A stretch of DNA of 64,000 nt from assembly GCA_012729095.1 (NCBI GenBank), contig JAAYDU010000027.1, positions 1,238-65,237 of the forward strand, read 5' to 3'. A model generated the notes under the pieces. It worked only from the letters and a program-made list of their open reading frames with translations, did no database searches and was not told the origin of the DNA. The DNA is from Methanobacteriota archaeon. Its GTDB lineage: Archaea > Thermoplasmatota > Thermoplasmata > Methanomassiliicoccales > UBA472. This document shows, piece by piece, positions 2-23,850 of this stretch (position 1 is the stretch's first letter; every line of letters starts with the position of its first letter). The position numbers were made by a program, and so were the translations under genes.

Positions 2-286
2 GGTTACGTGGGGGGCCTGCACTACACCCATTTCTCGGGCGTGGAGCACGAGGGCGGCAATGAACGGAGGGTAACCCCGATCAAGAAGGGAGACCTGCGC
101 TTCGAGCCCATGGCCGAGTATTTGGCCGACGCCAACCTGAACGCTACGATCATATCCAGCTCGCCACTGCTGGAGCACGATGCCATGTACATGAAGGTCA
201 TCTACGAGAGGGTGATGACCAAGCGGGTGTCCAAGGACATCAAGGTCAAGAAGGGCAAGGGCGCCAAGGACGATGATGAGGAGTGA
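2..286 (+). CDS. C-terminal part of a xylose-isomerase-like TIM-barrel / AP-endonuclease-2 family protein (5' end outside window)
   Basis: The frame is open to the left edge. The tail HYTHFSGVEHEGGNERRVTPIKKGDLRFEPMAEYL resembles the C-terminal metal-binding strands of endonuclease-IV-like TIM barrels. The TGA stop at 284-286 overlaps the GTG start of the next gene (GTGA). Confidence 0.4.
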   Translation, partial: GYVGGLHYTHFSGVEHEGGNERRVTPIKKGDLRFEPMAEYLADANLNATIISSSPLLEHDAMYMKVIYERVMTKRVSKDIKVKKGKGAKDDDEE

Positions 287-822
287 AGGAGACCACGGCC
301 TACGTTCTTGAGGAGGTCAGGCGAACCATCGAGCGGGTGGACGAGTCCATCATCGATGAGATCGTCGAGATACTTGCCTCCGCTCCTAAGATATTCATTT
401 ACGGCGTCGGGCGCTCTGGCCTGGTGGGCGAGGCCCTGGCGGCCCGCCTGGTACAGCTGGGACTTAACGTTCACTTCGTGGGAGACACGACCACCCCCAT
501 CGTGGAGAGGTCGCATGTCGTGCTCATATTCTCCAACACCGGGGAGACCATGTCAGCGGTGCAGACCGCCAACATCGTTCGCCGGCTGGGAGCCGTCGTG
601 ATCAGCATAACAGGCAGTGCCCATTCCAAGCTGGGCATAGCCAGCAACATCGTCCTGGAGCTAGTGCAGCCCAGGGACGAGCGTAAGAAGAAGAACGCCC
701 CCCTGGGAACCATCTTCGAGCTGTCCAGCATGGTGATGATGGATTCCATGGTTCCGTTGCTCATGGCCAGGCTGGACCAGGACGAGGCCTCGCTTCGCCG
801 CCGGCACGCCATATGGGTATGA
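283..822 (+). CDS. SIS-domain sugar-phosphate isomerase, probably 6-phospho-3-hexuloisomerase (RuMP pathway)
   Basis: 179 aa. The string IFIYGVGRSGLVGEALAARLVQLG...LIFSNTGET...ISITG is the SIS phosphosugar-binding pattern, and the size is typical of PHI. GTG start coupled to the upstream gene. Confidence 0.7.
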   Translation: MKETTAYVLEEVRRTIERVDESIIDEIVEILASAPKIFIYGVGRSGLVGEALAARLVQLGLNVHFVGDTTTPIVERSHVVLIFSNTGETMSAVQTANIVRRLGAVVISITGSAHSKLGIASNIVLELVQPRDERKKKNAPLGTIFELSSMVMMDSMVPLLMARLDQDEASLRRRHAIWV

Positions 823-1401
823 TCACATCCTGATCTTCTTGGGCCGCACGCTCTCCCCATAATAGGGGTTCTGGAACTCGTCCCAATAGACCAGGAACTT
901 TCGGCGGAGGACCTCGCCGTCCGAGAGGCAGAAGGCGTCCATCTCCTTTCGCACGGGGTCCACCACCAAAGCGGTGTGGTATGGCCGGTCGAACATGCCC
1001 TTCTGAGTGGAGATGTCCGTGGAGGAGAGGAAGCAGCCGTGCCCGGGATGGGAGTGATACCATCCGACCAGCACGTAGCGGAACCTGGCGCACTCCAGGG
1101 AGGCGAACAGCGCCTCAAAGCCTTCCGGATCGAACCTAACGCTGACCGAGGTCGCCTCCAGATCGGTGGTGGCCACATCTCGCACCACGGTGTACTCCAC
1201 GCCCTGGTGGGTGAACACCTCACCGAGAAGGAAGCCCATGACCTCCAGGCCTTCCTTCACCTTGGAGAGGGCGTGATTGCGCACCTTCTCCTCGGCGGTC
1301 TTGAACAGGTACATCTCCGCCTTCTTGCCGGAATACATCGGCAAGGCCTCCTTGGGGAGCCATTTATGAGGCAGCGTCCTCTCCTGGGCCGGAGGGGACA
1401 T
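823..1401 (-). CDS. Rpn11/CSN5-like JAMM (MPN+) metalloisopeptidase of the ubiquitin-like cassette
   Basis: Carries EVMGFLLG (catalytic Glu) and VGWYHSHPGHGCFLSSTDISTQ, i.e. E...HxHx7Sx2D. The start is taken at the ATG at 1401 (MSPPAQ...), preceded by GGAGGTGGAGGAG. The longer track ORF to 1629 overlaps the E2 gene out of frame. Confidence 0.85.
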   Translation of the reverse strand: MSPPAQERTLPHKWLPKEALPMYSGKKAEMYLFKTAEEKVRNHALSKVKEGLEVMGFLLGEVFTHQGVEYTVVRDVATTDLEATSVSVRFDPEGFEALFASLECARFRYVLVGWYHSHPGHGCFLSSTDISTQKGMFDRPYHTALVVDPVRKEMDAFCLSDGEVLRRKFLVYWDEFQNPYYGESVRPKKIRM

Positions 1402-1445
1402 CTCCTCCACCTCCAGGTCCTTCCCTCCCAGGATGACCGGCCCCT

Positions 1446-1952
1446 TCAATGTTTCACCACCTTCGGGGCGGGGACCACGATCAGGGGAGGCATTCTCCTG
1501 GGGGAGGAATTGAAGTACTGGGCAGCGGCGGTGCAGGTGTCGGTACCGAACGGGCTGCTGCCGTTCGGGGATATGAGTAGGGATTCCAGCCCCTTGATGA
1601 ATGTGGACAGCGTGGAATTGAAGGACCATTCCGAAAGCAGCTTGATGCAGACATGCCCCCCGTCCTCTGGCATCATGATATTGGGATGGAATATAGGCGT
1701 CCTCCAGATCACCAGCGGCTTTTCGAACGGGTACTCCCGGCCGATGATCAGCTCCATCCTGTGGCTGTAACGATAGGATATGTTCCCGTTCTCCATTACC
1801 GGACCAGGGGTGCCTTCCAGGGATATCTCCACCTTGAGAGGGAACCTCGTCAGATGCTCTTCGCTGTGATCGAAGTCGGGAGGGAGGTTGTGACGGCAGG
1901 CCTCCAACTCGTTCCTCAACCTGATTAGAAGTATCTCCAGGGGCAGGGTCAT
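1446..1952 (-). CDS. UBC-fold ubiquitin-conjugating enzyme (E2)
   Basis: 168 aa. REYPFEKPLVIWRTPIFHPNIMMPEDGGHVCIKLLSEWSFNSTLSTFIKGLESLLISPNGSSP matches the UBC core (YPF.xP.V.F.T.I.HPNI...G.IC...L..W......LL..PN...P). HPN is at residues 89-91 and the candidate catalytic Cys is residue 102. The start overlaps the Ubl stop (ATGA). Confidence 0.85.
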   Translation of the reverse strand: MTLPLEILLIRLRNELEACRHNLPPDFDHSEEHLTRFPLKVEISLEGTPGPVMENGNISYRYSHRMELIIGREYPFEKPLVIWRTPIFHPNIMMPEDGGHVCIKLLSEWSFNSTLSTFIKGLESLLISPNGSSPFGTDTCTAAAQYFNSSPRRMPPLIVVPAPKVVKH

Positions 1953-2261: not shown

Positions 2262-3086
2262 TCAGACAGCGGGATGGTTGGGGCACCCCTGATCTATGTC
2301 CAGGGACAGTATGTCACTGGTCCCCGCCAGGCCGTCGTAGTGCATGACATGCTCCATGACCGGACGATGGGAAACGATCTTAACGGCCTCCCGCACCTGC
2401 ACCGCGGCTATGATGCTGGTCGTCGTTATCTCGGCGGCCATCTTCGGCCGGTAGAAGACGGTGTCCTGGCCGGTGCAGCTGAACCGGCGTTCCATGACCT
2501 TGAAGTGGCTGCGGTTCATACCGCATTGAAGGCAGGGGGTCAGAGGGGGCATCACCACCTGCACCCTTCCCCGGAACCCGTCGGTGCCCCCGTCCACGTA
2601 CGGCACTCCGGCGTGATAGGAATTGGCGTTCAGATGAAGCCTCGCCGCCACGTTGTCCAGGCACCCCAGTATCAGGTCGTAGCCCTGCATCTCAACAGGC
2701 CCCAAGGATTGAACCCTTTCCTCGATGGCCTGGACCTCCGCCTCCGGATACAGGTCCCGCGCCCTTTCCGCCACCAGCGAGGCCTTGCCCCTCCCGGACC
2801 GCTGGTCCCCCTCCCGGAACAGCACGCAGCGGTTGAGGTTGGAACGCACTACCGTGTCCATGTCAAGAACGTCCACTTTCCGGAAGCCGAACAGCATCAG
2901 GTCCTTGACCGCCTCGTTCCCCAGCGCTCCGGCGCCGACCACGAGGACCCGGGCCCTCTGCACGCCCTCCATGTCCACCCAGGAGATACGCCTGGTCCGG
3001 TCGTGGCGGTCATCGTCCCTTTCCCCCGGGCGTATGGATTGGGGCATGGGAAACGGACCGCGCCCTGAGTATAAAACGAACGACAT
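2262..3086 (-). CDS. ThiF/MoeB/UBA-family ubiquitin-like activating enzyme (E1), adenylation domain only
   Basis: Carries the Rossmann loop VLVVGAGALGNE, LDMDTVVRSNLNR, CLDNVAARL, PYVDGGTDGFRGRVQVVMP and CLQC...FSCTG...CPNH. An alternative start is the ATG at 3047, which lies about 26 nt downstream of a TTTTATA element (see 3068-3078) and would give a leaderless mRNA. Confidence 0.85.
   Translation of the reverse strand: MSFVLYSGRGPFPMPQSIRPGERDDDRHDRTRRISWVDMEGVQRARVLVVGAGALGNEAVKDLMLFGFRKVDVLDMDTVVRSNLNRCVLFREGDQRSGRGKASLVAERARDLYPEAEVQAIEERVQSLGPVEMQGYDLILGCLDNVAARLHLNANSYHAGVPYVDGGTDGFRGRVQVVMPPLTPCLQCGMNRSHFKVMERRFSCTGQDTVFYRPKMAAEITTTSIIAAVQVREAVKIVSHRPVMEHVMHYDGLAGTSDILSLDIDQGCPNHPAV
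3068..3078 (-). promoter_or_regulatory. Putative TATA box for the E1 operon
   Basis: The minus strand reads cgTTTTATActc. The spacing to the ATG at 3047 is about 26 nt, as expected for an archaeal leaderless transcript. It lies in the divergent region shared with ppk. Confidence 0.3.
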
Positions 3087-3172: not shown

Positions 3173-5299
3173 ATGCCAGCCCGAAGGAGCAGCGCAGACC
3201 AGAGGAAAGGTGTTCGTGAACGGAGCTCAGTGAAGCGGCCCGCGGACACGCCCTTCATCAACCGGGAGATCAGTTGGATCAGGTTCCACCAGCGCATACT
3301 TGAGGAGGCGCAATGCACCGACCACCCCCTCTTGGAAAGGGTCAAGTTCCTGGCCATATGCGGCAGCAACCTGGACGAGTTCTTCATGGTGAGGGTGTCC
3401 GGCCTCAAGAGGCAGCTGAAGAAAGGTGCCTTGGAGACCCCGCCGGACGGCCTGACCCCCCTGGAGCAGATGGAGGTCGTCAACGAAGAGCTGCTGCCAC
3501 TGCTAGAGGCCCACGGCAAGCTGTGGTACGAGGACCTCCTGCCCAAGCTGGAAGCGGCGGGGATCACCATACATCGCGTGAAGGACCTGGACACGGGCAG
3601 GCGCCAGGGATTGCGCGATTACTTCGAGAGGATGATATTTCCAGCGCTCACGCCCTTGGCCCTGGACTTCAATCAGCCATTCCCGTTCATTTCCAATCTC
3701 AGCATAAACCTGGCGGTCAGCGTGAGACACCCCCAGCGAGGGGACCGCTATGCCCGGGTGAAGGTGCCCCTGGACCTGTTTCCCCGCTTCGTCCCCCTTC
3801 CGGGGAGCTCTCCGGGAAGGAAGCAGGAGTTCGTCCTGCTGGAGGACCTGGTGGCCGACAACCTGGACCTCCTGTTCCCTGGAATGAAGGTCAGGTACTC
3901 GCACATGTTCCGCATCACCCGAGACGCGGACATCGAGATAACCACCGATGAGGCGGAGGACCTGCTGACGGCCATAGAGGAGAGCGTGGAGACCAGGAGG
4001 ATAGGCTCGCCGATCCGCCTGGAGGTGGGCAAGGACATGCCGGACAAGCTCGTGGACCTTTTCGCCACCAAGCTTGGATTGCATCAGCTCATGGTTTTCC
4101 GTTCCCACGCCCCGCTGTCCATGGTCAGCTTCTGGGACCTTCTGTCGCTGCACCGCCCGGACCTCAAGGACCCGCCCTTCCTTCCGTTCGTCCCTGCGGA
4201 CCTGATGCCGGAGAAGTCCCTCATGACCGCGGTGGAGCATCGTGACAGGCTTTTCTATCACCCCTACGACAGCTTCGTGCCCCTGGTGAACTTCCTGAAG
4301 CAGGCGGCCAACGACCCGCAGGTACTGGCCATCAAGATCACTCTTTATCGCATAGACAAGCATTCCCCGGTCATCGACGCCCTCATGGAGGCGAGGGAGA
4401 ACGGCAAGGCGGTGGCCGCGGTGGTCGAGCTGAAGGCGCGCTTCGACGAGGAGAACAACATAGTATGGGCTAGGGCGTTGGAGAACGCCGGGGTGCACGT
4501 GGTGTACGGGCTGATGGACCTCAAGGTGCACGCCAAGCTGCTGCTGGTCGTTCGGAAGATGGGGGACAGGATAGTCCGCTACAGCCACATGAGCTCGGGG
4601 AACTACAACGCCCAGACATCCCGCATCTACGGCGACATAGGTTACCTCACGGCCGACCAGGACATAGGGGCTGACGTGGCCGACCTGTTCAATTTTTTGA
4701 CAGGCTATTCGTACAAGGACTCCTACCGGAAGCTGCTGGTCGCCCCGGTGACCCTGAAGGACGAGATGATCGCCAAGATAGACCGGGAGACCGCCCGGCA
4801 CCTGGAGCATGGAGATGGATACATAGCGTTCAAGCTGAACGGGCTTCTTGACCCGGACGTGATACAGGCGCTGTACCGGGCGTCCCAGGCGGGCGTTCGC
4901 GTGGACCTGAACGTGCGCGGCCTCTGCGCCCTGCGACCCGGCGTCAAGGGGCTGAGCGAGAACATCCGTGTGAACAGCATAGTCGGGCGCTTCCTGGAGC
5001 ACGCCCGCATCTACTATTTCCGAAACGGCGGGGAGGAGGAGGTGCTGCTGGGGAGCTCGGACATGATGCCCCGCAACCTGAAGAGAAGGGTGGAGGTGCT
5101 CTTCCCCGTCCTGGACGAGGGATACCGCCGCATGCTCGTGGACAGGATACTTCCCATCCACCTCATGGACAACACCAAGTCCAGGGACATGCTGCCCAAC
5201 GGGACCTATGTCATGAGGAAGAGGGGAAAAGGAGAGGAGAAGGTGGACTCCCAAGAATGGCTGATAGGGAACCGTGGTTACTGGCACGGGGAGGAGTAG
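3173..5299 (+). CDS. ppk: Polyphosphate kinase 1
   Basis: 708 aa. N-terminal FINREISWIRFHQRILEEA. The autophosphorylation-site context is LKVHAKLLLVVR. The C-terminal PLD-like repeats contain GRFLEHARIYYF. TAG stop. Confidence 0.9.
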   Translation: MPARRSSADQRKGVRERSSVKRPADTPFINREISWIRFHQRILEEAQCTDHPLLERVKFLAICGSNLDEFFMVRVSGLKRQLKKGALETPPDGLTPLEQMEVVNEELLPLLEAHGKLWYEDLLPKLEAAGITIHRVKDLDTGRRQGLRDYFERMIFPALTPLALDFNQPFPFISNLSINLAVSVRHPQRGDRYARVKVPLDLFPRFVPLPGSSPGRKQEFVLLEDLVADNLDLLFPGMKVRYSHMFRITRDADIEITTDEAEDLLTAIEESVETRRIGSPIRLEVGKDMPDKLVDLFATKLGLHQLMVFRSHAPLSMVSFWDLLSLHRPDLKDPPFLPFVPADLMPEKSLMTAVEHRDRLFYHPYDSFVPLVNFLKQAANDPQVLAIKITLYRIDKHSPVIDALMEARENGKAVAAVVELKARFDEENNIVWARALENAGVHVVYGLMDLKVHAKLLLVVRKMGDRIVRYSHMSSGNYNAQTSRIYGDIGYLTADQDIGADVADLFNFLTGYSYKDSYRKLLVAPVTLKDEMIAKIDRETARHLEHGDGYIAFKLNGLLDPDVIQALYRASQAGVRVDLNVRGLCALRPGVKGLSENIRVNSIVGRFLEHARIYYFRNGGEEEVLLGSSDMMPRNLKRRVEVLFPVLDEGYRRMLVDRILPIHLMDNTKSRDMLPNGTYVMRKRGKGEEKVDSQEWLIGNRGYWHGEE

Positions 5300-5304
5300 G
5301 GGCC

Positions 5305-7449
5305 ATGGAGGAACTGTGCGCATACGGGAGGACCATCATCGCCCAAAGGCTGGAGGCCCTCCTGGCCGAGGTCGACGGGGTGCGCAGGGGGGAAGACATC
5401 GAGTGCGTGCATCGCATGCGAGTGGCCTCCCGGCGTCTGCGATCGGCGCTTCGCCTGTTCGGGGATTGCTTCAAAGGGAAGAAGGCCAGGAGATGGCGGA
5501 AGGCGGTCAGGGAGGTCACCTCCTCGCTGGGAGAGGCGCGCGACCTGGACGTGCAGATCGATCTGCTCGGTAGCATCTCTGAGGACTGGGAGGGGGAGGA
5601 GGCGGTAGGACTCGCCCTCATCATGGAGATGCTGAAGTGCAGGAGGGCTTCCCTGCAACCGGGCGTAATCACGATGATGGACGCCATCGTCGCGGATGAC
5701 GCGTTCCAGGAGATGGGGTCCGATATCTCCGCGGTGAAGGAGATGGGAAAGGACCTGTCATCGCTGCACCCTTACGCTTTCGCCCATGCCGCGGTCGCGG
5801 TCGAGGAGATGATGGAGCACTCCCACTCCGTTCCCGTTTACGAGGACTGGCCGGGACATCACGCCCTGCGCATAGCGGGGAAGCATCTCCGCTATGCCCT
5901 GGAGGCCTTCCGGGAGGCCTATCCCGACAGGCTCAACGACGAGCTCAAGGTCCTCAAGGGACTGCAGGACGTGGTGGGAGAACTGCACGATTGCGACGTC
6001 TGGTTGCAGCGCTTGCCCGGACTGAGGGAGGAGGCCCCCCTGGCCATTGCGGCCATCGATCGCCTCCAATCGGTGTTCGAGGCTCGCCGGAGGGAGCTGC
6101 ACGTAAAGCTCGTGGAGCGCTGGTACTGTCTGATGCAAGAACGCTTCATGTACAGGCTATTGGACAAGCTGAAGGGGCGCCGGTCGGTGGAGACATGCCC
6201 GGTGAAGGTAGCCCTTATCTCCGACGTGCACGGGAACGCTTCAGCCCTCAAGGCGGTGATGGAAAGCGCCCGAAGCAGAGGTGCCACCGCCTTCCTGAAC
6301 GCCGGGGACTCGGTGGGCCTCCCAAGACCCGTGGAGTCCCTGCAGATGCTGAGGGAGCGGGACGTGCTAAGCGTCATCGGCAACATAGACCGGGCCGCGC
6401 TCAGGGCCGCCGCTGGAAAGAAGGTGCGGGACCGGCAGCTGGAGATGGCGGCGCAATCGATGGGGAAGGAGGACCTTGAATGGCTAGGCTCGTTGCCCGA
6501 GGAGCTGCGCCTGGACATATGCGGGCTGACCGTGCTGGTCACCCACGCCTCCCCCGGACAGGAGGCGGAGAAGCTTACCGTGCACACGCCCGATGCCCGG
6601 CTGCGCTTCCTGGCCGGAGAGAGCGGGGCGGACATAATCATCACCGGGCATTCCCATGCCCCCATGGCAAGGGATTGCGTCGGGACCCTTTTCATAAACC
6701 CGGGAAGCGTGGGGCGACCGCGCGAGGGGCCCGAGGCATCCTACGCCCTGTTGGACCTTCCTGCCCTGCGCGTCGAGCTGCTGAGGGTGGCATACGACTT
6801 TGAAGGCGTTGCCGGTGAGCTCCGGGCCCAGGGGTTCAAGGACCTGCCCAGGGAGCTGGAGGAAGGACGGACCAGGGACAAGGTGTTGGAGGCGGGAGCG
6901 TGGGCGGAACCGTTGCACGGTGACCGCCGGCACGCGGACCAGGTGAGGACCCTGGCCGCGCTCATCTTTGACGGTACCCGGGGATCGCATCGCCTGGACC
7001 CCAAGGACCGCGAGCTGCTTGAGATGGCGGCCATGGTGCATGACGTGGGTTTCGGAGAGGGCGCTGAAGGGCATCAGAGAAGGGCTCTGGACATCGTGAT
7101 GAAGACGGATATGGATCTCGACGAGGTCGAGCGGAGAATGCTGGCCTGCGTGGCCCGCTATCACGGCCTGCGCTCCCCGCGGCGGGGAGACCGGGTGTTC
7201 AAGGAACTGACCGAGTCGGAGCGGGAGAGGGTGGTCAAGCTATCGGCGATCCTGGCCCTGGCGGACGGCCTGGACCGAGGACATGCCTCCCTGGTCGGAG
7301 GCCTGGATGTGTCCATCGGGAAGGGTTCCGTGAACATCGTCATACAAGGCCAGGGAGACCTTTCCCTGGAGAGGGAGTGGGGGGCTCGCAAGGGACAGCG
7401 CCTCGCCAAAGCCCTCGACCGGGAGGTGATCGTCGTTGACCGAGAATGA
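5305..7449 (+). CDS. Fusion protein: CHAD domain + calcineurin-like metallophosphoesterase + Ppx/GppA C-terminal HD-like domain
   Basis: CHAD signatures: VHRMRVASRRLRSALRLF, LGEARDLDV, HALRIAGKHLRYALEAF. Metallophosphoesterase motifs: ISDVHG, AGDSVG, GNID, VTHA, GHSH. The C-terminal ~175 aa are paralogous to the C-terminus of the neighbouring Ppx (HADQV...AAMVHDVG...ARYH...LADGLDRGH). The ATG at 5305 follows GGGGAGGAG. The track ORF start at 5257 would overlap ppk. Confidence 0.8.
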   Translation: MEELCAYGRTIIAQRLEALLAEVDGVRRGEDIECVHRMRVASRRLRSALRLFGDCFKGKKARRWRKAVREVTSSLGEARDLDVQIDLLGSISEDWEGEEAVGLALIMEMLKCRRASLQPGVITMMDAIVADDAFQEMGSDISAVKEMGKDLSSLHPYAFAHAAVAVEEMMEHSHSVPVYEDWPGHHALRIAGKHLRYALEAFREAYPDRLNDELKVLKGLQDVVGELHDCDVWLQRLPGLREEAPLAIAAIDRLQSVFEARRRELHVKLVERWYCLMQERFMYRLLDKLKGRRSVETCPVKVALISDVHGNASALKAVMESARSRGATAFLNAGDSVGLPRPVESLQMLRERDVLSVIGNIDRAALRAAAGKKVRDRQLEMAAQSMGKEDLEWLGSLPEELRLDICGLTVLVTHASPGQEAEKLTVHTPDARLRFLAGESGADIIITGHSHAPMARDCVGTLFINPGSVGRPREGPEASYALLDLPALRVELLRVAYDFEGVAGELRAQGFKDLPRELEEGRTRDKVLEAGAWAEPLHGDRRHADQVRTLAALIFDGTRGSHRLDPKDRELLEMAAMVHDVGFGEGAEGHQRRALDIVMKTDMDLDEVERRMLACVARYHGLRSPRRGDRVFKELTESERERVVKLSAILALADGLDRGHASLVGGLDVSIGKGSVNIVIQGQGDLSLEREWGARKGQRLAKALDREVIVVDRE

Positions 7450-8995
7450 GAGGGGAAAGGTGGTGGCATTCCTGGACGTCGGCACGAACTCCGTGCGGCT
7501 GCTGGTGGTGCGCATTAACCCCAACCGTTCCTACACCATCATCAGCGAGCAGAAGGAGATGGTGAGGCTCGGCGAGCAGGAGTTCCGGAGCGGGGTCCTG
7601 CTGGAGAGCGCGATGGAAAGGTCGGTCAGGGTCCTGAAGAACTTCTGCGACCTTTCCCGGACCTACGGCGTGACCGAGTTCGTGGCCATGGCCACCTCGG
7701 CCACCAGGGAGGCCTCGAACCGAGCCGAGCTGGTCGATCGCGTGAAGGAGGCCACCGGGCTGGAGCTGCAGGTCATCTCGGGCAAGGAGGAGGCCAGGCT
7801 GATATACATGGGCGTTTCCACCGGCCATCACATCGGCCGCAAGAAGGCCATGTTCCTGGACATAGGAGGGGGGAGCACCGAGCTGGCCCTGGGCGACCAG
7901 AGCGAGCATTCATATCTGGAGAGCCTCAAGGTGGGGGCCGTCCGCCTAACCACCATGTTCGTGAAGAAGCCGGACGCGCCTGTACCGGATGCCGTGCTGG
8001 CCAAGATGCGCAAGTACGTGAAGAGCTCCCTGGTGCGGGCCAGAAAGGAAGTGCTGCAGGGCAAGGTATCCCTGGCCTTCGGCAGTTCCGGGACCATAGT
8101 TAACCTGGGCGAGATCCTGATGCGCCATGACAGCAGCTCGCACCCGGGCGTGATCAGGTACTCCCAGCTGAAGAAGCTGGTCCCGTACCTGGCCGGAATG
8201 GACCTGGCGGCCAGGCGCAAGGTGCAGGGCATGAACCCGGACAGGGCCGACATAATCGTGGCCGGGGCGATCATACTGGAAACGGCGATGGACGAGCTTA
8301 GGCTCAGCGAGATAGCCGTTAGCCAGCGTAGCATGAGGGACGGCATGCTCCAGGATTACCTGGGCGGCCTGGAGGAGTTCCCGGGCTTCCGGGAGCTTTC
8401 CGTGCGGGAAAGGAGCGTCATACAGCTGGGGCGCGCCTGCTCCATAGACGAGGAGCATGCCAGGCGGGTTACGGCCATCGCCCTGGAGCTGTTCGACAGC
8501 GCTGCCAAGAAGGGATTGCACACCATGGGAAAGAAGGAGAGGGAGATACTGCAGCACGCGGCCTTCCTGCATGACGTCGGCGATTTCATCTCCTTCAACG
8601 ACCATCACCTACACTCGCACTACATCATATGCCACGCCGAGCTGCTGGGGTTCTCCAACAGGGAGGTGCTGCTCATGGCCAACGTGGCAAAGCACCATCG
8701 GAAGCGAGCGCCGAAGCTCGGGGCGGTCGACCTGCGCGAACTGGACGCCAAGGACCAGCAGGCGCTCGTGCGCCTCTCCACGCTGCTTCGCATGGCGGAG
8801 AGCCTGGACCGCTCGCATTCCAACCTGGTGCAGAACGTTCGCTTCAGCAAGGTGACCAAGCGCGCGGTGAAGCTCATAGTCACCGCCAGCGGGGACCCTC
8901 AACTGGAGATGTGGCGCATGGAGGAGGACCGCAAGGCGTTCAAAAAAGCCTATGGAAGGGACCTTACGGTGGTTCTTAACAACATCGATGGATGA
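7436..8995 (+). CDS. ppx: Exopolyphosphatase (Ppx/GppA family)
   Basis: Carries VAFLDVGTNSVRLLV and LDIGGGSTELAL (actin-like ATPase phosphate loops) and a C-terminal HD-like domain (AAFLHDVGDFIS...HHLHSHY). The TTG start at 7436 overlaps the previous gene by 14 nt. A GTG at 7460 is an alternative start. Confidence 0.85.
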   Translation: MTENERGKVVAFLDVGTNSVRLLVVRINPNRSYTIISEQKEMVRLGEQEFRSGVLLESAMERSVRVLKNFCDLSRTYGVTEFVAMATSATREASNRAELVDRVKEATGLELQVISGKEEARLIYMGVSTGHHIGRKKAMFLDIGGGSTELALGDQSEHSYLESLKVGAVRLTTMFVKKPDAPVPDAVLAKMRKYVKSSLVRARKEVLQGKVSLAFGSSGTIVNLGEILMRHDSSSHPGVIRYSQLKKLVPYLAGMDLAARRKVQGMNPDRADIIVAGAIILETAMDELRLSEIAVSQRSMRDGMLQDYLGGLEEFPGFRELSVRERSVIQLGRACSIDEEHARRVTAIALELFDSAAKKGLHTMGKKEREILQHAAFLHDVGDFISFNDHHLHSHYIICHAELLGFSNREVLLMANVAKHHRKRAPKLGAVDLRELDAKDQQALVRLSTLLRMAESLDRSHSNLVQNVRFSKVTKRAVKLIVTASGDPQLEMWRMEEDRKAFKKAYGRDLTVVLNNIDG

Positions 8996-9044: not shown

Positions 9045-9269
9045 TTACTTGGTCTTCTTCATTATCTTCATCCAGCCGCCGGACTCGAACACCGCAAGAC
9101 CCCTCTTGCTGAGGGTCTTCTCGAACTCGTCCCAAGATACGATCTCCAGCCTCGCGTTGTTGCCCTTCGTGAATTGAACTCCGTTGGTGCCCTTTACGCG
9201 GCCCGGTTTGAGACCCTTCTTCTTCGCGATGTCCTTGGCCTTGTCTAAGCTGATCTTTTCCATCACCAT
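9045..9269 (-). CDS. Small basic protein of unknown function
   Basis: 74 aa from the ATG at 9269, preceded by GGAGGT. The sequence MVMEKISLDKAKDIAKKKGLKPGRVKGTNGVQFTKGNNARLEIVSWDEFEKTLSKRGLAVFESGGWMKIMKK looks like a real folded protein. No family was recognised. Confidence 0.5.
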   Translation of the reverse strand: MVMEKISLDKAKDIAKKKGLKPGRVKGTNGVQFTKGNNARLEIVSWDEFEKTLSKRGLAVFESGGWMKIMKKTK

Positions 9270-9524
9270 GGCATGACCTCCGCGATAATCGACCAATCTG
9301 GCCTGTTATCCAGTATGTAATGGATATGTTCAATATATAAAATTTATCGCATAAAGGACGAAGACCAGTAATTATTTCTCTTAAATAGTTTAGCCCGTTA
9401 ACCCTCCCGATCGTCCAGATTTTTATCCTTTCCGGGAGTATTCCGGAAACATGCTGGCCACATGACTGGCCATGTCTGGAAGGGCAGGGATTAAATGCCT
9501 TCGCAGGGATTACCTGAGGATAAC

Positions 9525-10820
9525 ATGGGGTTGTTCGGTTCCTCCGGCATACGCGGCCTGATAGGCAAGGACATCGACGCCGACCTTGGCGTGCGCATCG
9601 GCAGGGCGGTGGGCAGCCTCTCCCGCGCGGTAGTGATCGGAAAGGACCCCAGGACCAGCGGGGACCTGGTGGTGAGCGCGCTCGTGGCCGGGATCATCGA
9701 GGCGGGCGCTGAACCCTATCGCGCGGGCATGGTGCCCACGCCCACCTTGGCCTGCGCTGCCTCCCATTTCGATTGCGGCCTGATGGTGACCGCGTCCCAC
9801 AACCCCCCGGAGTACAACGGGGTAAAGATGTGGAACCCGGACGGCAGCGCCTTCGACGGGGAGCAGACGGAGAATGTGGAGAGGCTGATCGCCGAGGGCG
9901 GGAGAAGGGCCCCCTGGAACGAGATGATGCCCGAACGCCTTTGGGAAGGGGCCATCGACGAGCATGTCCATGCCATCCTGGAGGAGGTGGGGCCGGTGGA
10001 GCGTCGCCTGGTGATCGATTGCGGCTGCGGGGCCACCGGCCCGGTCAGCCCCCGCTTGTTCCGGGAACTGGGGTGTGACATAGTGACGCTGAACGCCAAT
10101 CCCGATGGACGTTTTCCCGGCCGGCCTTCGGAACCTTCCGAGGGGAACCTCGGTGACCTGATGGCCCTTTGCAGGGCCAAGGGCGTCATGGGAATCGCGC
10201 ACGACGGGGACGGGGACCGCATGGTGGCGGTGGACGAGGAAGGCCGCTACGTGAGCGGGGACCGTCTGTTGGCACTGTTCGCCTCGTTGATGAAGGTGAA
10301 AAACATGGCCGCCCCGGTGGACGCCTCCATGGTCCTGGACGACATAGTTGGCCGGTCGATCGAACGCACCAGGGTTGGGGACATGTTCGTCTCCGAGGCC
10401 CTTAAGAAAAAAGGGCTTCCCTTCGGCGGCGAGCCGTCCGGCACGTTCATATTCCCCTCCGTGAACTACTGTCCGGACGGCATGCTGGCCGGAGCGTGCC
10501 TCATTGAACTGCTGGACGGCCGATCCCTGAAGGACATGGTGGGCTCCCTTCCTGCCTACCCGTCCATGCGGGACTCGTTCTCCTTTGACCAATCGAGGAG
10601 GGAGGAGATAGGGGCAAGGCTGTCCGAGGAGATCTCCTCCATCGAGGGAGACCTTACCACCGTGGACGGTTACCGCGTCGATCTGGGCTATGGCTGGCTG
10701 CTCGTCCGGCTATCGGGAACGGAGCCCAAGGTTCGGCTGACCGCCGAAGCGCGCCAGCGGGAGGACCTGGAGAAGATAACGGACATGGCCAGGGTTAGGG
10801 TGCGCAAGGCATTGGACTGA
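9525..10820 (+). CDS. Alpha-D-phosphohexomutase (phosphoglucosamine / phosphomannomutase type)
   Basis: Carries the phosphoserine loop TASHNPPEYNGVK and the Mg loop AHDGDGDRM. The start is taken at MGLFGSSGIRG (ATG 9525). It lies upstream of a GlmU-like gene. Confidence 0.85.
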   Translation: MGLFGSSGIRGLIGKDIDADLGVRIGRAVGSLSRAVVIGKDPRTSGDLVVSALVAGIIEAGAEPYRAGMVPTPTLACAASHFDCGLMVTASHNPPEYNGVKMWNPDGSAFDGEQTENVERLIAEGGRRAPWNEMMPERLWEGAIDEHVHAILEEVGPVERRLVIDCGCGATGPVSPRLFRELGCDIVTLNANPDGRFPGRPSEPSEGNLGDLMALCRAKGVMGIAHDGDGDRMVAVDEEGRYVSGDRLLALFASLMKVKNMAAPVDASMVLDDIVGRSIERTRVGDMFVSEALKKKGLPFGGEPSGTFIFPSVNYCPDGMLAGACLIELLDGRSLKDMVGSLPAYPSMRDSFSFDQSRREEIGARLSEEISSIEGDLTTVDGYRVDLGYGWLLVRLSGTEPKVRLTAEARQREDLEKITDMARVRVRKALD

Positions 10821-10866: not shown

Positions 10867-12093
10867 ATGAAAGCACTAATCCTGGCCGCCGGGGAAGGCA
10901 CCCGTCTCAGACCGCTGACCAGCAACATACCCAAGCCGCTCCTGACCTTGGCCGGGCGGCCTTACCTGGCCCACCTTGTGCAGGCGTTGAGGGACGCCGG
11001 GGTGAAGGAGCAGGTCATACTGGTGGGATGGAAGGCCAACCGGGTCAAGGAGTTCTTCGGCGACGGGCGGCAGATGGGTGTGGACCTCAGCTACCTGGAG
11101 CAGAAGGAGCGCCTGGGCACCGCCAACGCAATAGGGGTGGCGGAAGATGTCATGGACGGGGACTTCGTGTGCGTGAACGGGGACGTGGTCATGTCCCCGG
11201 AGGCGGTGGCCGAGATGGTGTCCGCCTTCGAGAGGGACCGCGTCCCGTTCATGGGAGCGGTGGAGGTCCCGGACCCGCACAGGTTCGGAGTGGTCAAGCA
11301 GGACGGCGAGAAGCTGGTCAGCATCATCGAGAAGCCTTCCCGCCCCCCGTCCAACCTGATCAACGGCGGTTTCTTCGGCCTAGGCACCGAGGTATTCGAG
11401 CACATACGGAACACCGAGCGCTCCCCCCGCGGCGAGTACGAGTTCACCGATACCCTGAACATGATGGCCTCCCGGACGGACGTCCTGGTGCGCAGGATCA
11501 GGGGAGAATGGATGGACGTGGGCTATCCCTGGGAGCTGCTGCGGGCCAACGAGTTCCTCATGGGGCGGCTGGAACGCGACATAGGGGGGGAGGTGGAGGA
11601 GGGCGCCGTGCTCAAGGGCGCGGTCGTCGTCGAGGAGGGTGCCTTGGTCAGGAGCGGGAGCTATATCGAAGGCCCCGCCTACATCTCAAATGGCTGCGAT
11701 ATCGGCCCTAACTGCTACATCAGGCCGTTCACCTGCCTCGGAGAGGGCGTCCGTGTCGGCAGCTCGGTGGAGGTGAAGAACTCCATAGTGATGAGGGGGA
11801 CGCATATCCCCCATCACAATTACGTGGGGGACAGCGTGATCGGGGAGAGGTGCAACTTCGGCGCCGGGACCAAGGTCGCCAACCTGCGGTTCGACGATCG
11901 GACGGTCAGGGTCACCGCCAACGGGCGGACCATGAGCACCGGCCGGCGCAAGCTCGGGGTGGTCATGGGGGATGACGTTAAAACGGGCATCAACGCCATG
12001 ATCGAGCCTGGAACGGTCATATGGGAGAGGTCGGTCATCGGCATGGGTGCCAGGGCCCGGGGGAGCATCGGGCCCAGCAGCAGGTTCTTCTAA
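10867..12093 (+). CDS. Bifunctional sugar-1-phosphate nucleotidyltransferase / acetyltransferase (archaeal GlmU-like)
   Basis: N-terminal MKALILAAGEGTRLRPLTSNIPKPLL. The C-terminus has left-handed beta-helix hexapeptide repeats (IGPNCYIRPFTCLGEGVRVGSSVEVKNSIV...). Confidence 0.8.
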   Translation: MKALILAAGEGTRLRPLTSNIPKPLLTLAGRPYLAHLVQALRDAGVKEQVILVGWKANRVKEFFGDGRQMGVDLSYLEQKERLGTANAIGVAEDVMDGDFVCVNGDVVMSPEAVAEMVSAFERDRVPFMGAVEVPDPHRFGVVKQDGEKLVSIIEKPSRPPSNLINGGFFGLGTEVFEHIRNTERSPRGEYEFTDTLNMMASRTDVLVRRIRGEWMDVGYPWELLRANEFLMGRLERDIGGEVEEGAVLKGAVVVEEGALVRSGSYIEGPAYISNGCDIGPNCYIRPFTCLGEGVRVGSSVEVKNSIVMRGTHIPHHNYVGDSVIGERCNFGAGTKVANLRFDDRTVRVTANGRTMSTGRRKLGVVMGDDVKTGINAMIEPGTVIWERSVIGMGARARGSIGPSSRFF

Positions 12094-12467
12094 AGCTCGA
12101 CGACCGGCAGCTGCATGCGCCGCCCCCGACCGTCGTAGGCGCGCCAGCTCCCCTCGTCGAAGGGAAGGCATGTTATGACGTGGATGTAGCCGTACCGTCT
12201 AAAGAACTCCAGGTCCTCTCTGGACGGCCGGTTGCTGTAGCCGGGATGCGAGTGCACCGTGCCCACTATCGAAAAATCGACGGGCATCATGTGCAGCATG
12301 AGGGTGGCCGAGTCCTCTCCCTGCAATGTACCGGGCAGCAGGATGAGCTCCTGTATGACGCCCTCCTCCGCCCTGAGCATGGCCACGAACTCGTTGGGCA
12401 GCGAATCGCGCGCGGCCTCGTTTATCATTTCCAGGAGGGCGCGGTCTATGCCCCGCACCTTCAGCAT
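12090..12467 (-). CDS. Minimal stand-alone JAMM/MPN+ metalloprotease
   Basis: 125 aa. EFVAMLRAEEG plus VHSHPGYSNRPSREDL gives E...HxHx7Sx2D. Its start overlaps the nadK stop by 7 nt. Confidence 0.8.
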   Translation of the reverse strand: MLKVRGIDRALLEMINEAARDSLPNEFVAMLRAEEGVIQELILLPGTLQGEDSATLMLHMMPVDFSIVGTVHSHPGYSNRPSREDLEFFRRYGYIHVITCLPFDEGSWRAYDGRGRRMQLPVVEL

Positions 12468-13270
12468 AGCGTCCCCATCAGCTTCTCCCGGGTCCTGCCG
12501 TAGAAGCTCTTTCCGAAGCTGACGAAACGCGCCCGGTCAGGGGAGGCCTTGAACTCCACCGTCTCGTTGCCAGCCATCAACATCTCCTGCTGGCCGTCGA
12601 CCACCACCACGCATTCCTTGGGCCGCACGATCTGAACTGAGATACGGCTGCTGGCAGGGACAACCACCGGCCGGGCGGAGAACTTGAAAGGGGCCATGGG
12701 GGCTATCACCAGCGCCTCCACCCGGGGATCCACCAGGGGGGCGCCCAGGCTCATGGCGTAGCAGGTGGAGCCGGTCGGCGTCGCCACCACGATGCCGTCG
12801 GCCCTGACGTTCATGGCCATCTCCCCGTCCACGAACACCTGGAAGTGGCGTATCTTGGCCACGTGGGCGGTGTGCAGGACCGCCTCGTTCATGGCATCGA
12901 GCATGCGCGTCCCGCCCACGGTGGTCTGCAGCTTGATGCGCTCCTCCAGGTCGTAATGGCCCCGGAGGAGGTTCTCCACGCCCTCCTCCAGCTCCTCCTC
13001 GGAGACCACGGTCAGGAAACCGAGGTCCCCGGCGTTGATGCCGAATATGGGCGCCTTGTTGTGCTGCAGCGCCCTGAGTATGGTGCCGTCCCCTCCCACG
13101 GTGACCATGATGTCCACGTCCATGTCCTCCAGGAGCAGGCCATCGGTTCTGAACCGGGAGGCCATCCCTTTTTCCAGCAGCACCTCGTGCCCCTCGAGCA
13201 GCTCCAAGGTCCTCTTGGCCATGCGCGGGGCGTCGGGTATGTCCATGTTGACGCTCATCCCGAACCTCAT
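12461..13270 (-). CDS. nadK: NAD kinase
   Basis: Carries GGDGTILRA and GINAGDLGFLT. The start is taken at the ATG at 13270 (MRFGMSVNMD), which forms an ATGA overlap with the stop of the upstream IMPase gene. Confidence 0.85.
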   Translation of the reverse strand: MRFGMSVNMDIPDAPRMAKRTLELLEGHEVLLEKGMASRFRTDGLLLEDMDVDIMVTVGGDGTILRALQHNKAPIFGINAGDLGFLTVVSEEELEEGVENLLRGHYDLEERIKLQTTVGGTRMLDAMNEAVLHTAHVAKIRHFQVFVDGEMAMNVRADGIVVATPTGSTCYAMSLGAPLVDPRVEALVIAPMAPFKFSARPVVVPASSRISVQIVRPKECVVVVDGQQEMLMAGNETVEFKASPDRARFVSFGKSFYGRTREKLMGTLC

Positions 13271-14070
13271 CTCAACCACTCCAGCAGGTCCGGGTCGCCG
13301 GCGGCCAGGCAATTGGCGCGGTCCTCCAGGTCCAGGGCCATGTCCAGCGTGTTGCCCTCAAGGTCGTAAAGGTCCCCGCCCGCTTCCCTGAGCACAAGGG
13401 CGCTGGCGGCGATGTCCACCACCCGCAGCGCTCTCTGGTACACCTCGGAGTGCAGGTAGAACCCGTCGGCAAGACCCGCGGCGACAAGGCACATCTCCAG
13501 GGAAGAGCAGCCCATTGAACGGGTCCGCCGGGCCTTGCGCAGCACCCCGTTGGCGGAGGCCGCGGAGAACTTGCCGAGATACACGAACAGCACTGAGCTG
13601 TCCTTGTGGCACTTGCGGACGTGTATGGGCCTACCGTTCCAGGTGGCCCCCTTTCCCTTCTCGGCGTAGAACAGGTCCCCGGTGACCAGGTTCCTGACGA
13701 TGCCGTGGGTGGCGTCGTTCATGCTTTTGGTGCATACGGCCAGAGAGACGCTGTAGAAAGGTATGCCCATGAGAGCGTTGTACGTTCCGTCCACCGGGTC
13801 CATGACCAGCGTCCTTTCGTACCCCCTGTCCACGAACCCCGCCTCCTCGCTGAGAACGTTCAGGGGGACGCCCCTGTCGTCCATGAGCCGGAGCAGGAGG
13901 TCCTCGGCGGCCTGGTCGATGCGGCAGGTGGGCGTGCCGTCCGCCCCCATGCCCACCTCGGCGGACCTGTCGCTGAAGGCGCATTCCCGATCTATCCCTT
14001 CGGCCACCGAGGCGGCCAGCCATTCAAGCGTTTCCCTCATCCCCCTGGATATTGGCGTGGGGTTATTCAT
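13267..14070 (-). CDS. suhB: Inositol monophosphatase / FBPase family phosphatase
   Basis: Carries LSEEAG, MDPVDGTYNA and VDIAASALVLREAGG. The start is taken at the ATG at 14070 (MNNPTPISRG). Confidence 0.8.
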   Translation of the reverse strand: MNNPTPISRGMRETLEWLAASVAEGIDRECAFSDRSAEVGMGADGTPTCRIDQAAEDLLLRLMDDRGVPLNVLSEEAGFVDRGYERTLVMDPVDGTYNALMGIPFYSVSLAVCTKSMNDATHGIVRNLVTGDLFYAEKGKGATWNGRPIHVRKCHKDSSVLFVYLGKFSAASANGVLRKARRTRSMGCSSLEMCLVAAGLADGFYLHSEVYQRALRVVDIAASALVLREAGGDLYDLEGNTLDMALDLEDRANCLAAGDPDLLEWLR

Positions 14071-14141
14071 AATTGCGCCAGTAAAAACGGTAAATACGGA
14101 AGAAGACGTTCCCTTCACGCCCCAGGCGGCAGAGTGATCCA

Positions 14142-23682: not shown

Positions 23683-23755
23683 GGGCTCATGGTCTAGCGG
23701 TTATGACGTCTCCCTGACACGGAGGAGGTCTCCGGTTCAAATCCGGATGAGCCCA
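23683..23755 (+). tRNA. tRNA-Val (anticodon GAC)
   Basis: Hand-folded cloverleaf: acceptor GGGCTCA/TGAGCCC; D arm GTC-TAGCGGTTAT-GAC; anticodon stem TCTCC/GGAGG with loop CTGACAC; T arm TCCGG-TTCAAAT-CCGGA; discriminator A. No encoded CCA and no intron. Confidence 0.9.
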
Positions 23756-23850
23756 CTTACGATCACAAGCGATCGAGCTTCTTTCGATCGGACAGGGATT
23801 TTCGTTCGATCGTCCATATTCGGTCTTTCGTTCTCGTCCAGCGGCGTGAG

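Follow-up and report, generated by a model that had tools for sequence, protein, structure and literature searches.

A three-domain protein is encoded between ppk1 and ppx

The DNA analysed here is a stretch of 64,000 nucleotides (nt) from an archaeon of the Methanomassiliicoccales (contig JAAYDU010000027.1), referred to as the window. Between the genes for polyphosphate kinase 1 (ppk1) and a Ppx/GppA exopolyphosphatase (ppx), it carries an open reading frame (ORF) at 5305-7449 (+), the product of which is named X here. The gene is documented by its stop-free translation of 714 amino acids (aa), by Pfam matches, by homologues and by identical public contigs. ATG 5257 is an alternative start and gives the 730-aa form found in public gene calls. 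The 16 additional N-terminal residues of this form are not conserved among X homologues. Residue ranges of Pfam matches are given in the 730-aa numbering.

The N-terminal part of X is a CHAD domain (Pfam PF05235, residues 27-253, 5335-6015 (+), E 6.3e-45). With 154.4 bits it lies far above the curated cut-off of 25.6, and positions 2-227 of the 228 profile positions are covered. As a structural domain, the CHAD part is all-helical and comprises about residues 1-289 (5305-6171). It is followed by a binuclear metallophosphoesterase (MPE) of the YfcE/Metallophos_2 type with a helical insert (PF12850, residues 317-501, 6205-6759 (+), E 1.9e-27, 96.6 bits versus a cut-off of 27), which extends as a structural domain to about 6864. 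The NCBIfam model of the YfcE subfamily, TIGR00040, also matches (61.5 bits, cut-off 56.25). The third part is a Ppx/GppA-type domain III, a helical domain of the HD superfamily (PF21447, residues 553-675, 6913-7281 (+), E 1.1e-13, 51.8 bits versus 27.3). The general Pfam HD model scores 19.3 bits on X, compared with a gathering score of 22. A small C-terminal beta-beta-alpha-beta subdomain resembling domain IV (7294-7440 (+)) was assigned from the secondary structure of the AlphaFold model, where residues 664-712 have a predicted local distance difference test score (pLDDT) above 90. The tail of X can be aligned with that of the adjacent Ppx over 177 aa with 31% identity (BLASTP, E 1e-21). 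The alignment reaches both C-termini and thereby spans the small subdomain, the counterpart of which is the extreme C-terminus of Ppx.

An earlier sequence-only reading of this DNA had described the same three domains and a tail paralogous to the C-terminus of the neighbouring Ppx. All three domains exceed their Pfam cut-offs and the paralogy is borne out by the alignment. The motifs quoted in that reading, VHRMRVASRRLRSALRLF, HALRIAGKHLRYALEAF, DVHG, GDSVG, GNID, THA and GHSH, are all present in X, and the profile searches on which it had made its CHAD and phosphoesterase assignments depend recovered both domains with the E-values given above. No PF02541 match, which would represent the actin-like (ASKHA) domains I and II, was found in X by the Pfam search, whereas the adjacent gene reaches 222 bits with this model. 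Since X lacks the actin-like domains, it is not an enzyme of the Ppx/GppA family. Likewise, X is not a YgiF-type enzyme, because the Pfam scan gave no match to the CYTH domain of the triphosphate tunnel metalloenzymes (TTM). Judged by its profile matches, X belongs to the YfcE/Metallophos_2 subfamily and contains, in addition, a genuine CHAD domain and a domain III of the Ppx type.

The upstream gene ppk1 (3173-5299 (+)) encodes a four-domain kinase (Pfam PP_kinase_N, middle, C_1 and C_2, E 1e-35 to 7e-71), and its product scores 821 bits with the NCBIfam model TIGR03705 (cut-off 466). Its stop codon TAG occupies 5297-5299, leaving a gap of 5 nt to ATG 5305. A Shine-Dalgarno-like GGAGGAG, read from the sequence, lies inside the end of ppk1 (5290-5296 (+)), 9-15 nt 5′ of this ATG. 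On the other side, the stop codon of X (7447-7449) abuts or overlaps the start of ppx (7436-8995 (+)), for which TTG 7436, overlapping the end of X, or GTG 7460/7463 are start candidates. The Ppx protein consists of domains I and II, domain III and a short C-terminal subdomain (Pfam Ppx-GppA, E 1.4e-65; Ppx-GppA_III, E 1.6e-32). Because of the 5-nt gap between ppk1 and X and the overlapping or abutting ends of X and ppx, the spacing of the three genes is compatible with a single transcription unit.

The fusion is widespread

A search of 5.8 billion proteins yielded 559 relatives of X at E ≤1e-5. All three Pfam domains were present in 117 of the 120 best homologue clusters, which derive from Methanomassiliicoccales (54-100% identity), Bathyarchaeia (about 32-37%) and a few bacteria. 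The relatives carry only the automatic names 'YfcE family phosphodiesterase' or 'putative phosphoesterase'. The closest genome locus (L001) belongs to an uncultured Methanomassiliicoccus, in which X, PPK1 and Ppx are 74%, 87% and 87% identical, respectively. An identical 730-aa X product is found on seven contigs from at least four independent metagenome assemblies, and all seven share the gene context ThiF / ppk1-X-ppx-small ORF-phosphoglucomutase (PGM).

To cover the MPE-domain III part exhaustively, 1.84 billion representative sequences were scanned with HMMER at E ≤1e-30. This resulted in 146 clusters at 50% identity, which fall roughly into proteins of 700-800 aa, which are fused to CHAD, and two-domain proteins of 430-500 aa. 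For the two-domain form alone, there are at least 417 clusters when sequences are grouped at 90% identity. Almost every member of the family is from an uncultured organism; the genera Methanoculleus, Methanospirillum and Methanocalculus do have cultured representatives.

The sequence-only reading had named a frameshift splitting X into separate genes as one of the findings that would overturn it. The ORF is identical and uninterrupted in the at least four assemblies. A joining of separate genes by a frameshift or by mis-assembly is hardly conceivable given this recurrence, the 117 clusters of the same architecture and the continuous high-confidence AlphaFold model; its sole point in favour is that the modules are separate genes in many bacteria. 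By all sequence comparisons, X is a real and widely conserved three-part protein that is encoded between ppk1 and ppx in many anaerobic archaea and bacteria. The same reading did not recognise the combination as a characterised enzyme. This holds for the literature, as full-text searches found no study of a CHAD-MPE-domain III fusion or of any prokaryotic MPE polyphosphatase, but the combination is neither rare nor unannotated, with hundreds of automatically named clusters.

Gene order and module fusion across genomes

The genomic context was examined in 79 loci (L001-L079), one genome per species, which were found through CHAD patterns and onto which the PPK1, X and Ppx of the window were mapped. 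The order ppk1-X-ppx recurs in Methanomassiliicoccales, Bathyarchaeia, Methanolliviera, Thermoplasmatales, Methanomicrobiales, Synergistota and a Limnocylindrales bacterium (Chloroflexota); in Planctomycetota the order is X-ppx-ppk1. Among the 57 loci with an MPE module, ppk1 lies within 6 kb in 40, ppx in 42, both in 34 and at least one of them in 48. Several of the nine loci that have neither are short contigs.

Whether the modules are fused or split, their order CHAD > MPE > domain III > ppx is constant. Most archaea encode CHAD-MPE-domain III as one protein. A CHAD-MPE protein followed by a separate domain III occurs in Methanoculleus (L024), Methanospirillum (L029) and three further loci (L023, L028, L036), and a CHAD protein followed by MPE-domain III in Planctomycetota, Synergistota and unclassified bacteria. 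All three modules are separate genes in L065, L075 and L077. CHAD-domain III without the MPE is found in Methanoregula (L066, L072, L074, L079) and in L057 and L078, CHAD-MPE without domain III in the cultured strain of Methanocalculus taiwanensis (L037), and CHAD alone before ppx in L067 and L070. The products of the split genes were confirmed by Pfam.

As an independent check of context, five two-domain MPE-domain III proteins were chosen without reference to CHAD. All five clusters contain ppk1, four contain ppx and three have PPK2 nearby. A CHAD gene with overlapping ends lies directly upstream in four of them. The link to polyphosphate (polyP) that had been read from the window is much strengthened by an arrangement conserved across archaeal and bacterial phyla.

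Several individual loci show variations. Two superclusters of the Planctomycetota type (L087, 1973-11140; L088, 3114-11171) have the order PPK2 - stand-alone domain III - CHAD - MPE-domain III - ppx - ppk1, with stand-alone domain III/HD proteins of 214-224 aa; in L087 only, a guanylate kinase gene lies between the stand-alone domain III and CHAD. An uncultured archaeon (GCA_902386135.1; L084, 192-12064) has the order ppx - 165-aa ORF - ppk1 - CHAD - MPE-domain III, followed by a 637-aa protein without a Pfam match, a PPDK_N/PEP-utilizer protein and PPK2 on the opposite strand. In Methanocalculus taiwanensis P2F9704a (L037, 1847-9548), two tandem ppk1 genes precede the CHAD-MPE protein that lacks domain III, and ppx follows; this cultured methanogen could be a possible experimental system. 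In an Aminiphilus sp. (L021, 6901-7200), the CHAD and MPE-domain III ORFs are in frame with one stop codon between them ('...VTEEV*GPLKVALFADIHGN'), which suggests either that the genes were split or fused very recently or that the stop codon is a read-through site. Two CHAD-MPE-domain III gene copies within about 8 kb occur in some Bathyarchaeia and one Limnocylindrales genome (L007, L011, L028, L032). One further cluster (L085) with CHAD, MPE-domain III and ppx has an additional stand-alone Metallophos protein of 267 aa (1830-2633) directly 5′ of ppk1, and in L071 two PGM genes lie between MPE and ppx.

Conserved residues

Residue conservation was assessed in 102 full-length family members of 32-74% identity, considering positions that are invariant or at least 90% conserved. 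All seven metal ligands of the MPE (D307, H309, D335, N360, H414, H449 and H451) are invariant. The motif set DxH, GD, GNxD, H and GHxH is complete in X, and N311, D362, GHxH and an NPGSVGRP motif are likewise conserved. CHAD domains are built from two four-helix-bundle halves, with conserved histidines and basic residues on the surface that binds polyP. In X, the basic and histidine residues H36, R39, S42, R43, R44 and R46 in one half and H185, H186, R189, K193, R196 and Y197 in the other are kept; of these, H36, R39, S42, R43, H186, R189, K193, R196 and Y197 are invariant. The HD-type set of domain III (H543, H579-D580, H590, H620 and D657) is invariant or nearly so. Since these positions in all three domains are kept at this level of divergence, the alignment indicates that purifying selection maintains an active enzyme, and it shows the pattern expected if both the active site and the polyP-binding surface are functional.

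Predicted structure

The structure of X was predicted with AlphaFold2 from the family alignment and compared with the Protein Data Bank (PDB) by Foldseek; TM-scores are given relative to the target (TMt) or the query (TMq). The model of whole X has a pLDDT of 93.4 and a predicted TM-score (pTM) of 0.66. It consists of the helical CHAD domain (1-289), a short linker of lower confidence, the MPE (about 298-520), an alpha/beta domain with a helical insert, domain III (540-655) and the terminal subdomain (664-712). When residues 295-714 were modelled alone, the pLDDT was 96.0 and the pTM 0.92. This difference in pTM suggests that the MPE and domain III/IV form a rigid core, while CHAD is less certainly placed and is probably a flexible tether. 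The boundary of this core coincides with the commonest gene split, that between CHAD and MPE-domain III.

The CHAD domain matches that of the Chlorobium tepidum CHAD-polyP complex (6qva, TMt 0.75). The X tail matches a C-terminal fragment of the Yersinia pestis PPX (3rf0, TMt 0.71, about 202 columns) and also resembles other PPX/GppA structures. For the MPE, matches were obtained to 3rqz, SapH/Spr1479 (3qfm/3qfn), 1nnw and 2gju (TMt 0.71-0.80), with YfcE, MJ0936 and Vps29 as more distant neighbours. No solved structure spanning the MPE-domain III pair was found in the PDB by Foldseek, where the best TMq was 0.49 and matches covered single domains.

The nearest characterised structural neighbour of the X MPE is SapH/Spr1479 (TMt 0.75-0.79), which is described in the PDB as an asymmetric Ap4A hydrolase and phosphodiesterase. 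X might accordingly hydrolyse nucleotide-type substrates and merely reside at polyP: CHAD and domain III would only bring it to the granule, and the MPE would cleave dinucleoside polyphosphates, nucleoside tetraphosphates, ATP/ADP or a phosphodiester arising near PPK1/PPK2. The PDB descriptions of 1su1 (YfcE) and 1s3l (MJ0936) as phosphoesterase and phosphodiesterase fit with this, as does the presence of PPK2 and guanylate kinase in some clusters. One database entry is named bis(5′-nucleosyl)-tetraphosphatase, but the name is automatic and counts as no evidence. On the other hand, the pTM of the predicted core suggests that the MPE packs rigidly against a Ppx-type domain that handles polyP, and in most loci the linkage is to CHAD, ppk1 and ppx, not to genes of nucleotide metabolism. 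We consider such a nucleotide hydrolase unlikely.

The presence of Vps29 among the structural neighbours touches on another explanation, in which X would act at the granule chiefly as an adaptor without catalysis of its own, a scaffold of the phosin kind that recruits or regulates Ppx or PPK1, with the MPE as a sensor or as an inert fold like that of Vps29. Domain III/IV of X could, for example, pair with the paralogous domain of Ppx. In PPX enzymes, which form dimers, the C-terminal domains touch the catalytic half and affect its activity (PMC11234463). Additionally, CHAD-domain III or CHAD alone can occupy the slot of X. However, the seven metal ligands, GHxH and NPGSVGRP do not vary at 32-74% identity, which would be unexpected for an inert fold, and a mainly structural role is therefore judged to be quite improbable.

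Origin of domain III and its HD-type site

The relationship of the X tail to the Ppx tail was also considered. X-type and Ppx-type domains III fall into two clades with a 98% clean split, and the nearest neighbour belongs to the same class in 109 of 113 cases. On this basis, X-type domain III is an orthologous group of its own and the duplication is old. That the Ppx tail was duplicated locally in recent times, or that the catalytic half of Ppx was swapped, was rejected in view of the two-clade split and of the modules existing as separate genes. The idea that X is a Ppx whose actin-like half was replaced, as put forward in the sequence-only reading, is therefore not supported: its domain III belongs to the old separate clade, and CHAD, MPE and domain III are separate adjacent genes in many bacteria. 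Because of this old clade and the patterns of gene fission, X rather looks like a fusion of operon neighbours.

The same reading had taken the tail for a second polyP-binding module. The C-terminal domain of E. coli PPX does bind polyP and serves as a polyP-binding probe (PMC6537752), but a role in mere binding is not shown for the X tail, which keeps an intact HD-type H..HD..H..D set. H543, H579-D580, H590, H620 and D657 are retained in 62-64 of 64 X-type and 46-49 of 49 neighbouring Ppx-type domains. The Ppx enzymes with this set come mostly from uncultured archaea and bacteria. Domain III of the Ppx in the window (8440-8995) also keeps the complete H..HD..H..H..D set. It may be that metal is still bound by domain III of this Ppx and of the neighbouring Ppx enzymes in related loci, as their residues suggest.

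Domain III itself could thus be catalytic, as the main or a second centre, and X and the neighbouring Ppx would then each have an HD phosphohydrolase activity that has gone unrecognised, an explanation that is compatible with the other readings of X. Apart from the retained residues, it is favoured by the separate domain III-only proteins of 214-224 aa beside PPK2 and by stand-alone domain III ORFs that pass the Pfam HD cut-off at 43.6 and 32.8 bits versus 22. X itself remains below this cut-off. The solved PPX enzymes of E. coli, A. baumannii and D. radiodurans have HE in place of HD, and in the first two the first histidine of the set is replaced by Q. In a search of the PDB, the X-type domain III profile matched 8jgo (E 9e-30), and only PPX/GppA C-termini were found; no other HD enzyme matched convincingly (best non-PPX E 0.03-0.6). 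We know of no Ppx domain III that is catalytic, and none emerged from the papers covered. Taken together, catalysis by domain III seems rather unlikely.

Proposed function of X

The likeliest explanation, to which we give about an even chance, is that X is a polyP-targeted binuclear MPE, a new kind of prokaryotic polyP hydrolase that complements Ppx within a conserved ppk1-X-ppx turnover operon. In this mechanism, the N-terminal CHAD domain would bind polyP, either as long chains or in granules, and act as a flexible tether, and the MPE and the Ppx-type domain III/IV would pack as one rigid unit with a two-metal site. This site, probably occupied, like those of YfcE and MJ0936, by Mn2+, Co2+ or Ni2+, would hydrolyse the phosphoanhydride bonds of polyP. 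Where X is present, a canonical Ppx is almost always present as well and not displaced by it, and it is therefore probable that the two activities would be complementary. X could make internal cuts or attack granule-bound or short chains and, in doing so, generate ends, or complete products, with which the processive Ppx copes poorly. That polyP is the substrate, how it is cleaved and which metal is bound are inferred, as is the polyphosphatase or phosphodiesterase activity suggested in the sequence-only reading.

The conserved linkage to ppk1, ppx and ppk2 and the intact catalytic and binding residues argue for this proposal. Hydrolysis of Ap4A is a P-O-P cleavage, so the nearest characterised relative of the X MPE already cuts this type of bond. 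Enzymes of the MPE superfamily that cut polyP are known, namely the calcineurin-like PPN1 and the metallophosphatase PPN2 of yeast and human ACP5 (PMC6973038). The CHAD module, which has no activity of its own, is established as binding polyP specifically and as decorating granules (PMC6537752, PMC6973038).

Some points weigh against a polyP hydrolase. The operon slot is filled by CHAD-domain III without the MPE in the Methanoregula loci, or by CHAD alone, and the MPE would thus be dispensable for the core role of this slot. To our knowledge, characterised enzymes of the YfcE family act on diesters or nucleotides and not on polyP. Additionally, the net charge of the MPE is negative across the family (median -6.5), which is naively unexpected for a surface that binds a polyanion, while domain III/IV is positive (median +7.5). 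With a median of +2 for CHAD and values of -6, -4 and -1 for CHAD, MPE and domain III/IV of X in the window, net charge was discarded as uninformative for polyP binding.

More tentatively, and with doubt prevailing, CHAD, MPE and domain III may constitute the endopolyphosphatase system that has been missing in prokaryotes, in which a rigid hydrolase with two centres, the MPE and the HD-type site, is delivered to granules by CHAD and forms a three-enzyme remodelling operon with PPK1 and Ppx. If this were true, related enzymes could explain the Mn2+/Co2+-dependent polyP-degrading activities in archaea to which no gene has been assigned.

Other genes in the window

Upstream of the operon, the window contains a gene for a SIS-domain protein (283-822 (+)) and an archaeal SAMP-type pair, consisting of a JAB/MPN protease (823-1629 (-)) and a ThiF-family E1-like enzyme (2262-3086 (-)). 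The ThiF gene is divergent from ppk1, with an 86-bp gap between them. Downstream, ppx is followed by genes for a phosphoglucomutase/phosphomannomutase (9495-10820 (+)) and a sugar-1-phosphate nucleotidyltransferase with hexapeptide repeats (10867-12093 (+)). The same pair follows ppx in six Methanomassiliicoccales loci (L003, L005, L009, L012, L025 and L039). The 500-bp gap between ppx and the PGM gene contains a small basic ORF (9045-9296 (-)) of 83 aa, or 74 aa in public contigs, which has no Pfam match and is present in the identical contigs (L080-L082).

About 3.5 kb 3′ of ppx, a NAD kinase gene overlaps a gene of the inositol-monophosphatase family (12461-13312 (-) and 13267-14142 (-)). 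PolyP is the phosphoryl donor for some NAD kinases, and this proximity to ppx may for that reason be meaningful. A single tRNA-Val(GAC) (23683-23756 (+)) is the sole RNA gene found in the window; scans of the window for composition, tRNAs and Rfam families gave neither a sign of a mobile element nor an RNA feature around the operon.

Comparison with known systems

For prokaryotes, almost all breakdown of polyP is ascribed to enzymes of the Ppx/GppA family and to kinases running in reverse. Because a conserved, operon-embedded MPE family carries two polyP-handling modules, X offers a concrete candidate, amenable to cloning, for a second polyphosphatase class in prokaryotes. If this is true, polyP turnover would have to be modelled differently in methanogens, Bathyarchaeia and anaerobic bacteria, which would bear on the phosphorus cycle of sediments, peat and digesters, and new tools for cutting or probing polyP could be obtained. 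In a survey of archaeal genomes, no endopolyphosphatase homologue was found (PMC6864096), and endopolyphosphatase activity is said to span archaea to mammals but not bacteria (PMC12210182). In 2026, a polyP-degrading enzyme of about 45 kDa that depends on Mn2+/Co2+ was reported from Haloferax volcanii, an archaeon without Ppx; its gene was not identified (PMC13318637), and nothing in our data places this enzyme in the X family.

Several known systems share parts of X. E. coli YgiF, a tripolyphosphatase of the TTM/CYTH-CHAD type, has a metal-dependent phosphoanhydride hydrolase domain fused to CHAD, as is proposed for X (PMC4641920, PMC6973038). However, YgiF has the triphosphate tunnel fold and a C-terminal CHAD domain, lacks a Ppx-type domain III and is not encoded between ppk1 and ppx. 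Yeast Ppn1/Ppn2 and human ACP5 belong, like X, to the MPE superfamily, are known to hydrolyse polyP (PMC6973038) and work beside a separate exopolyphosphatase. They are eukaryotic and vacuolar, belong to other MPE subfamilies and carry neither CHAD nor a Ppx domain III. As X was assigned to YfcE/Metallophos_2, orthology with Ppn1/Ppn2 is unlikely. Ppx/GppA enzymes such as E. coli PPX and D. radiodurans PPX (8jgo) have domain III and the small terminal subdomain in common with X, whereas their actin-like domains I and II are entirely missing from X and X-type domain III is a separate old clade.

Phosphodiesterases of the YfcE/MJ0936/SapH type (1su1, 1s3l, 3qfm, 3rqz and 1nnw) have the same fold and the same seven metal ligands as the X MPE, which carries the helical insert of the 3rqz/SapH/1nnw subgroup of about 250 aa (TMt 0.71-0.80). 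In contrast to X, these are single-domain proteins without polyP-binding modules. Phosins, which are CHAD-only proteins of polyP granules, share with X the CHAD domain and a gene location linked to ppk and ppx (PMC10892726, PMC6973038). They have no enzymatic domain, whereas X has the MPE-domain III core in addition to CHAD. Compared with all of these, what appears to be new in X is the arrangement: a putative polyP-targeted phosphohydrolase that is assembled from known modules, widely conserved and uncharacterised.

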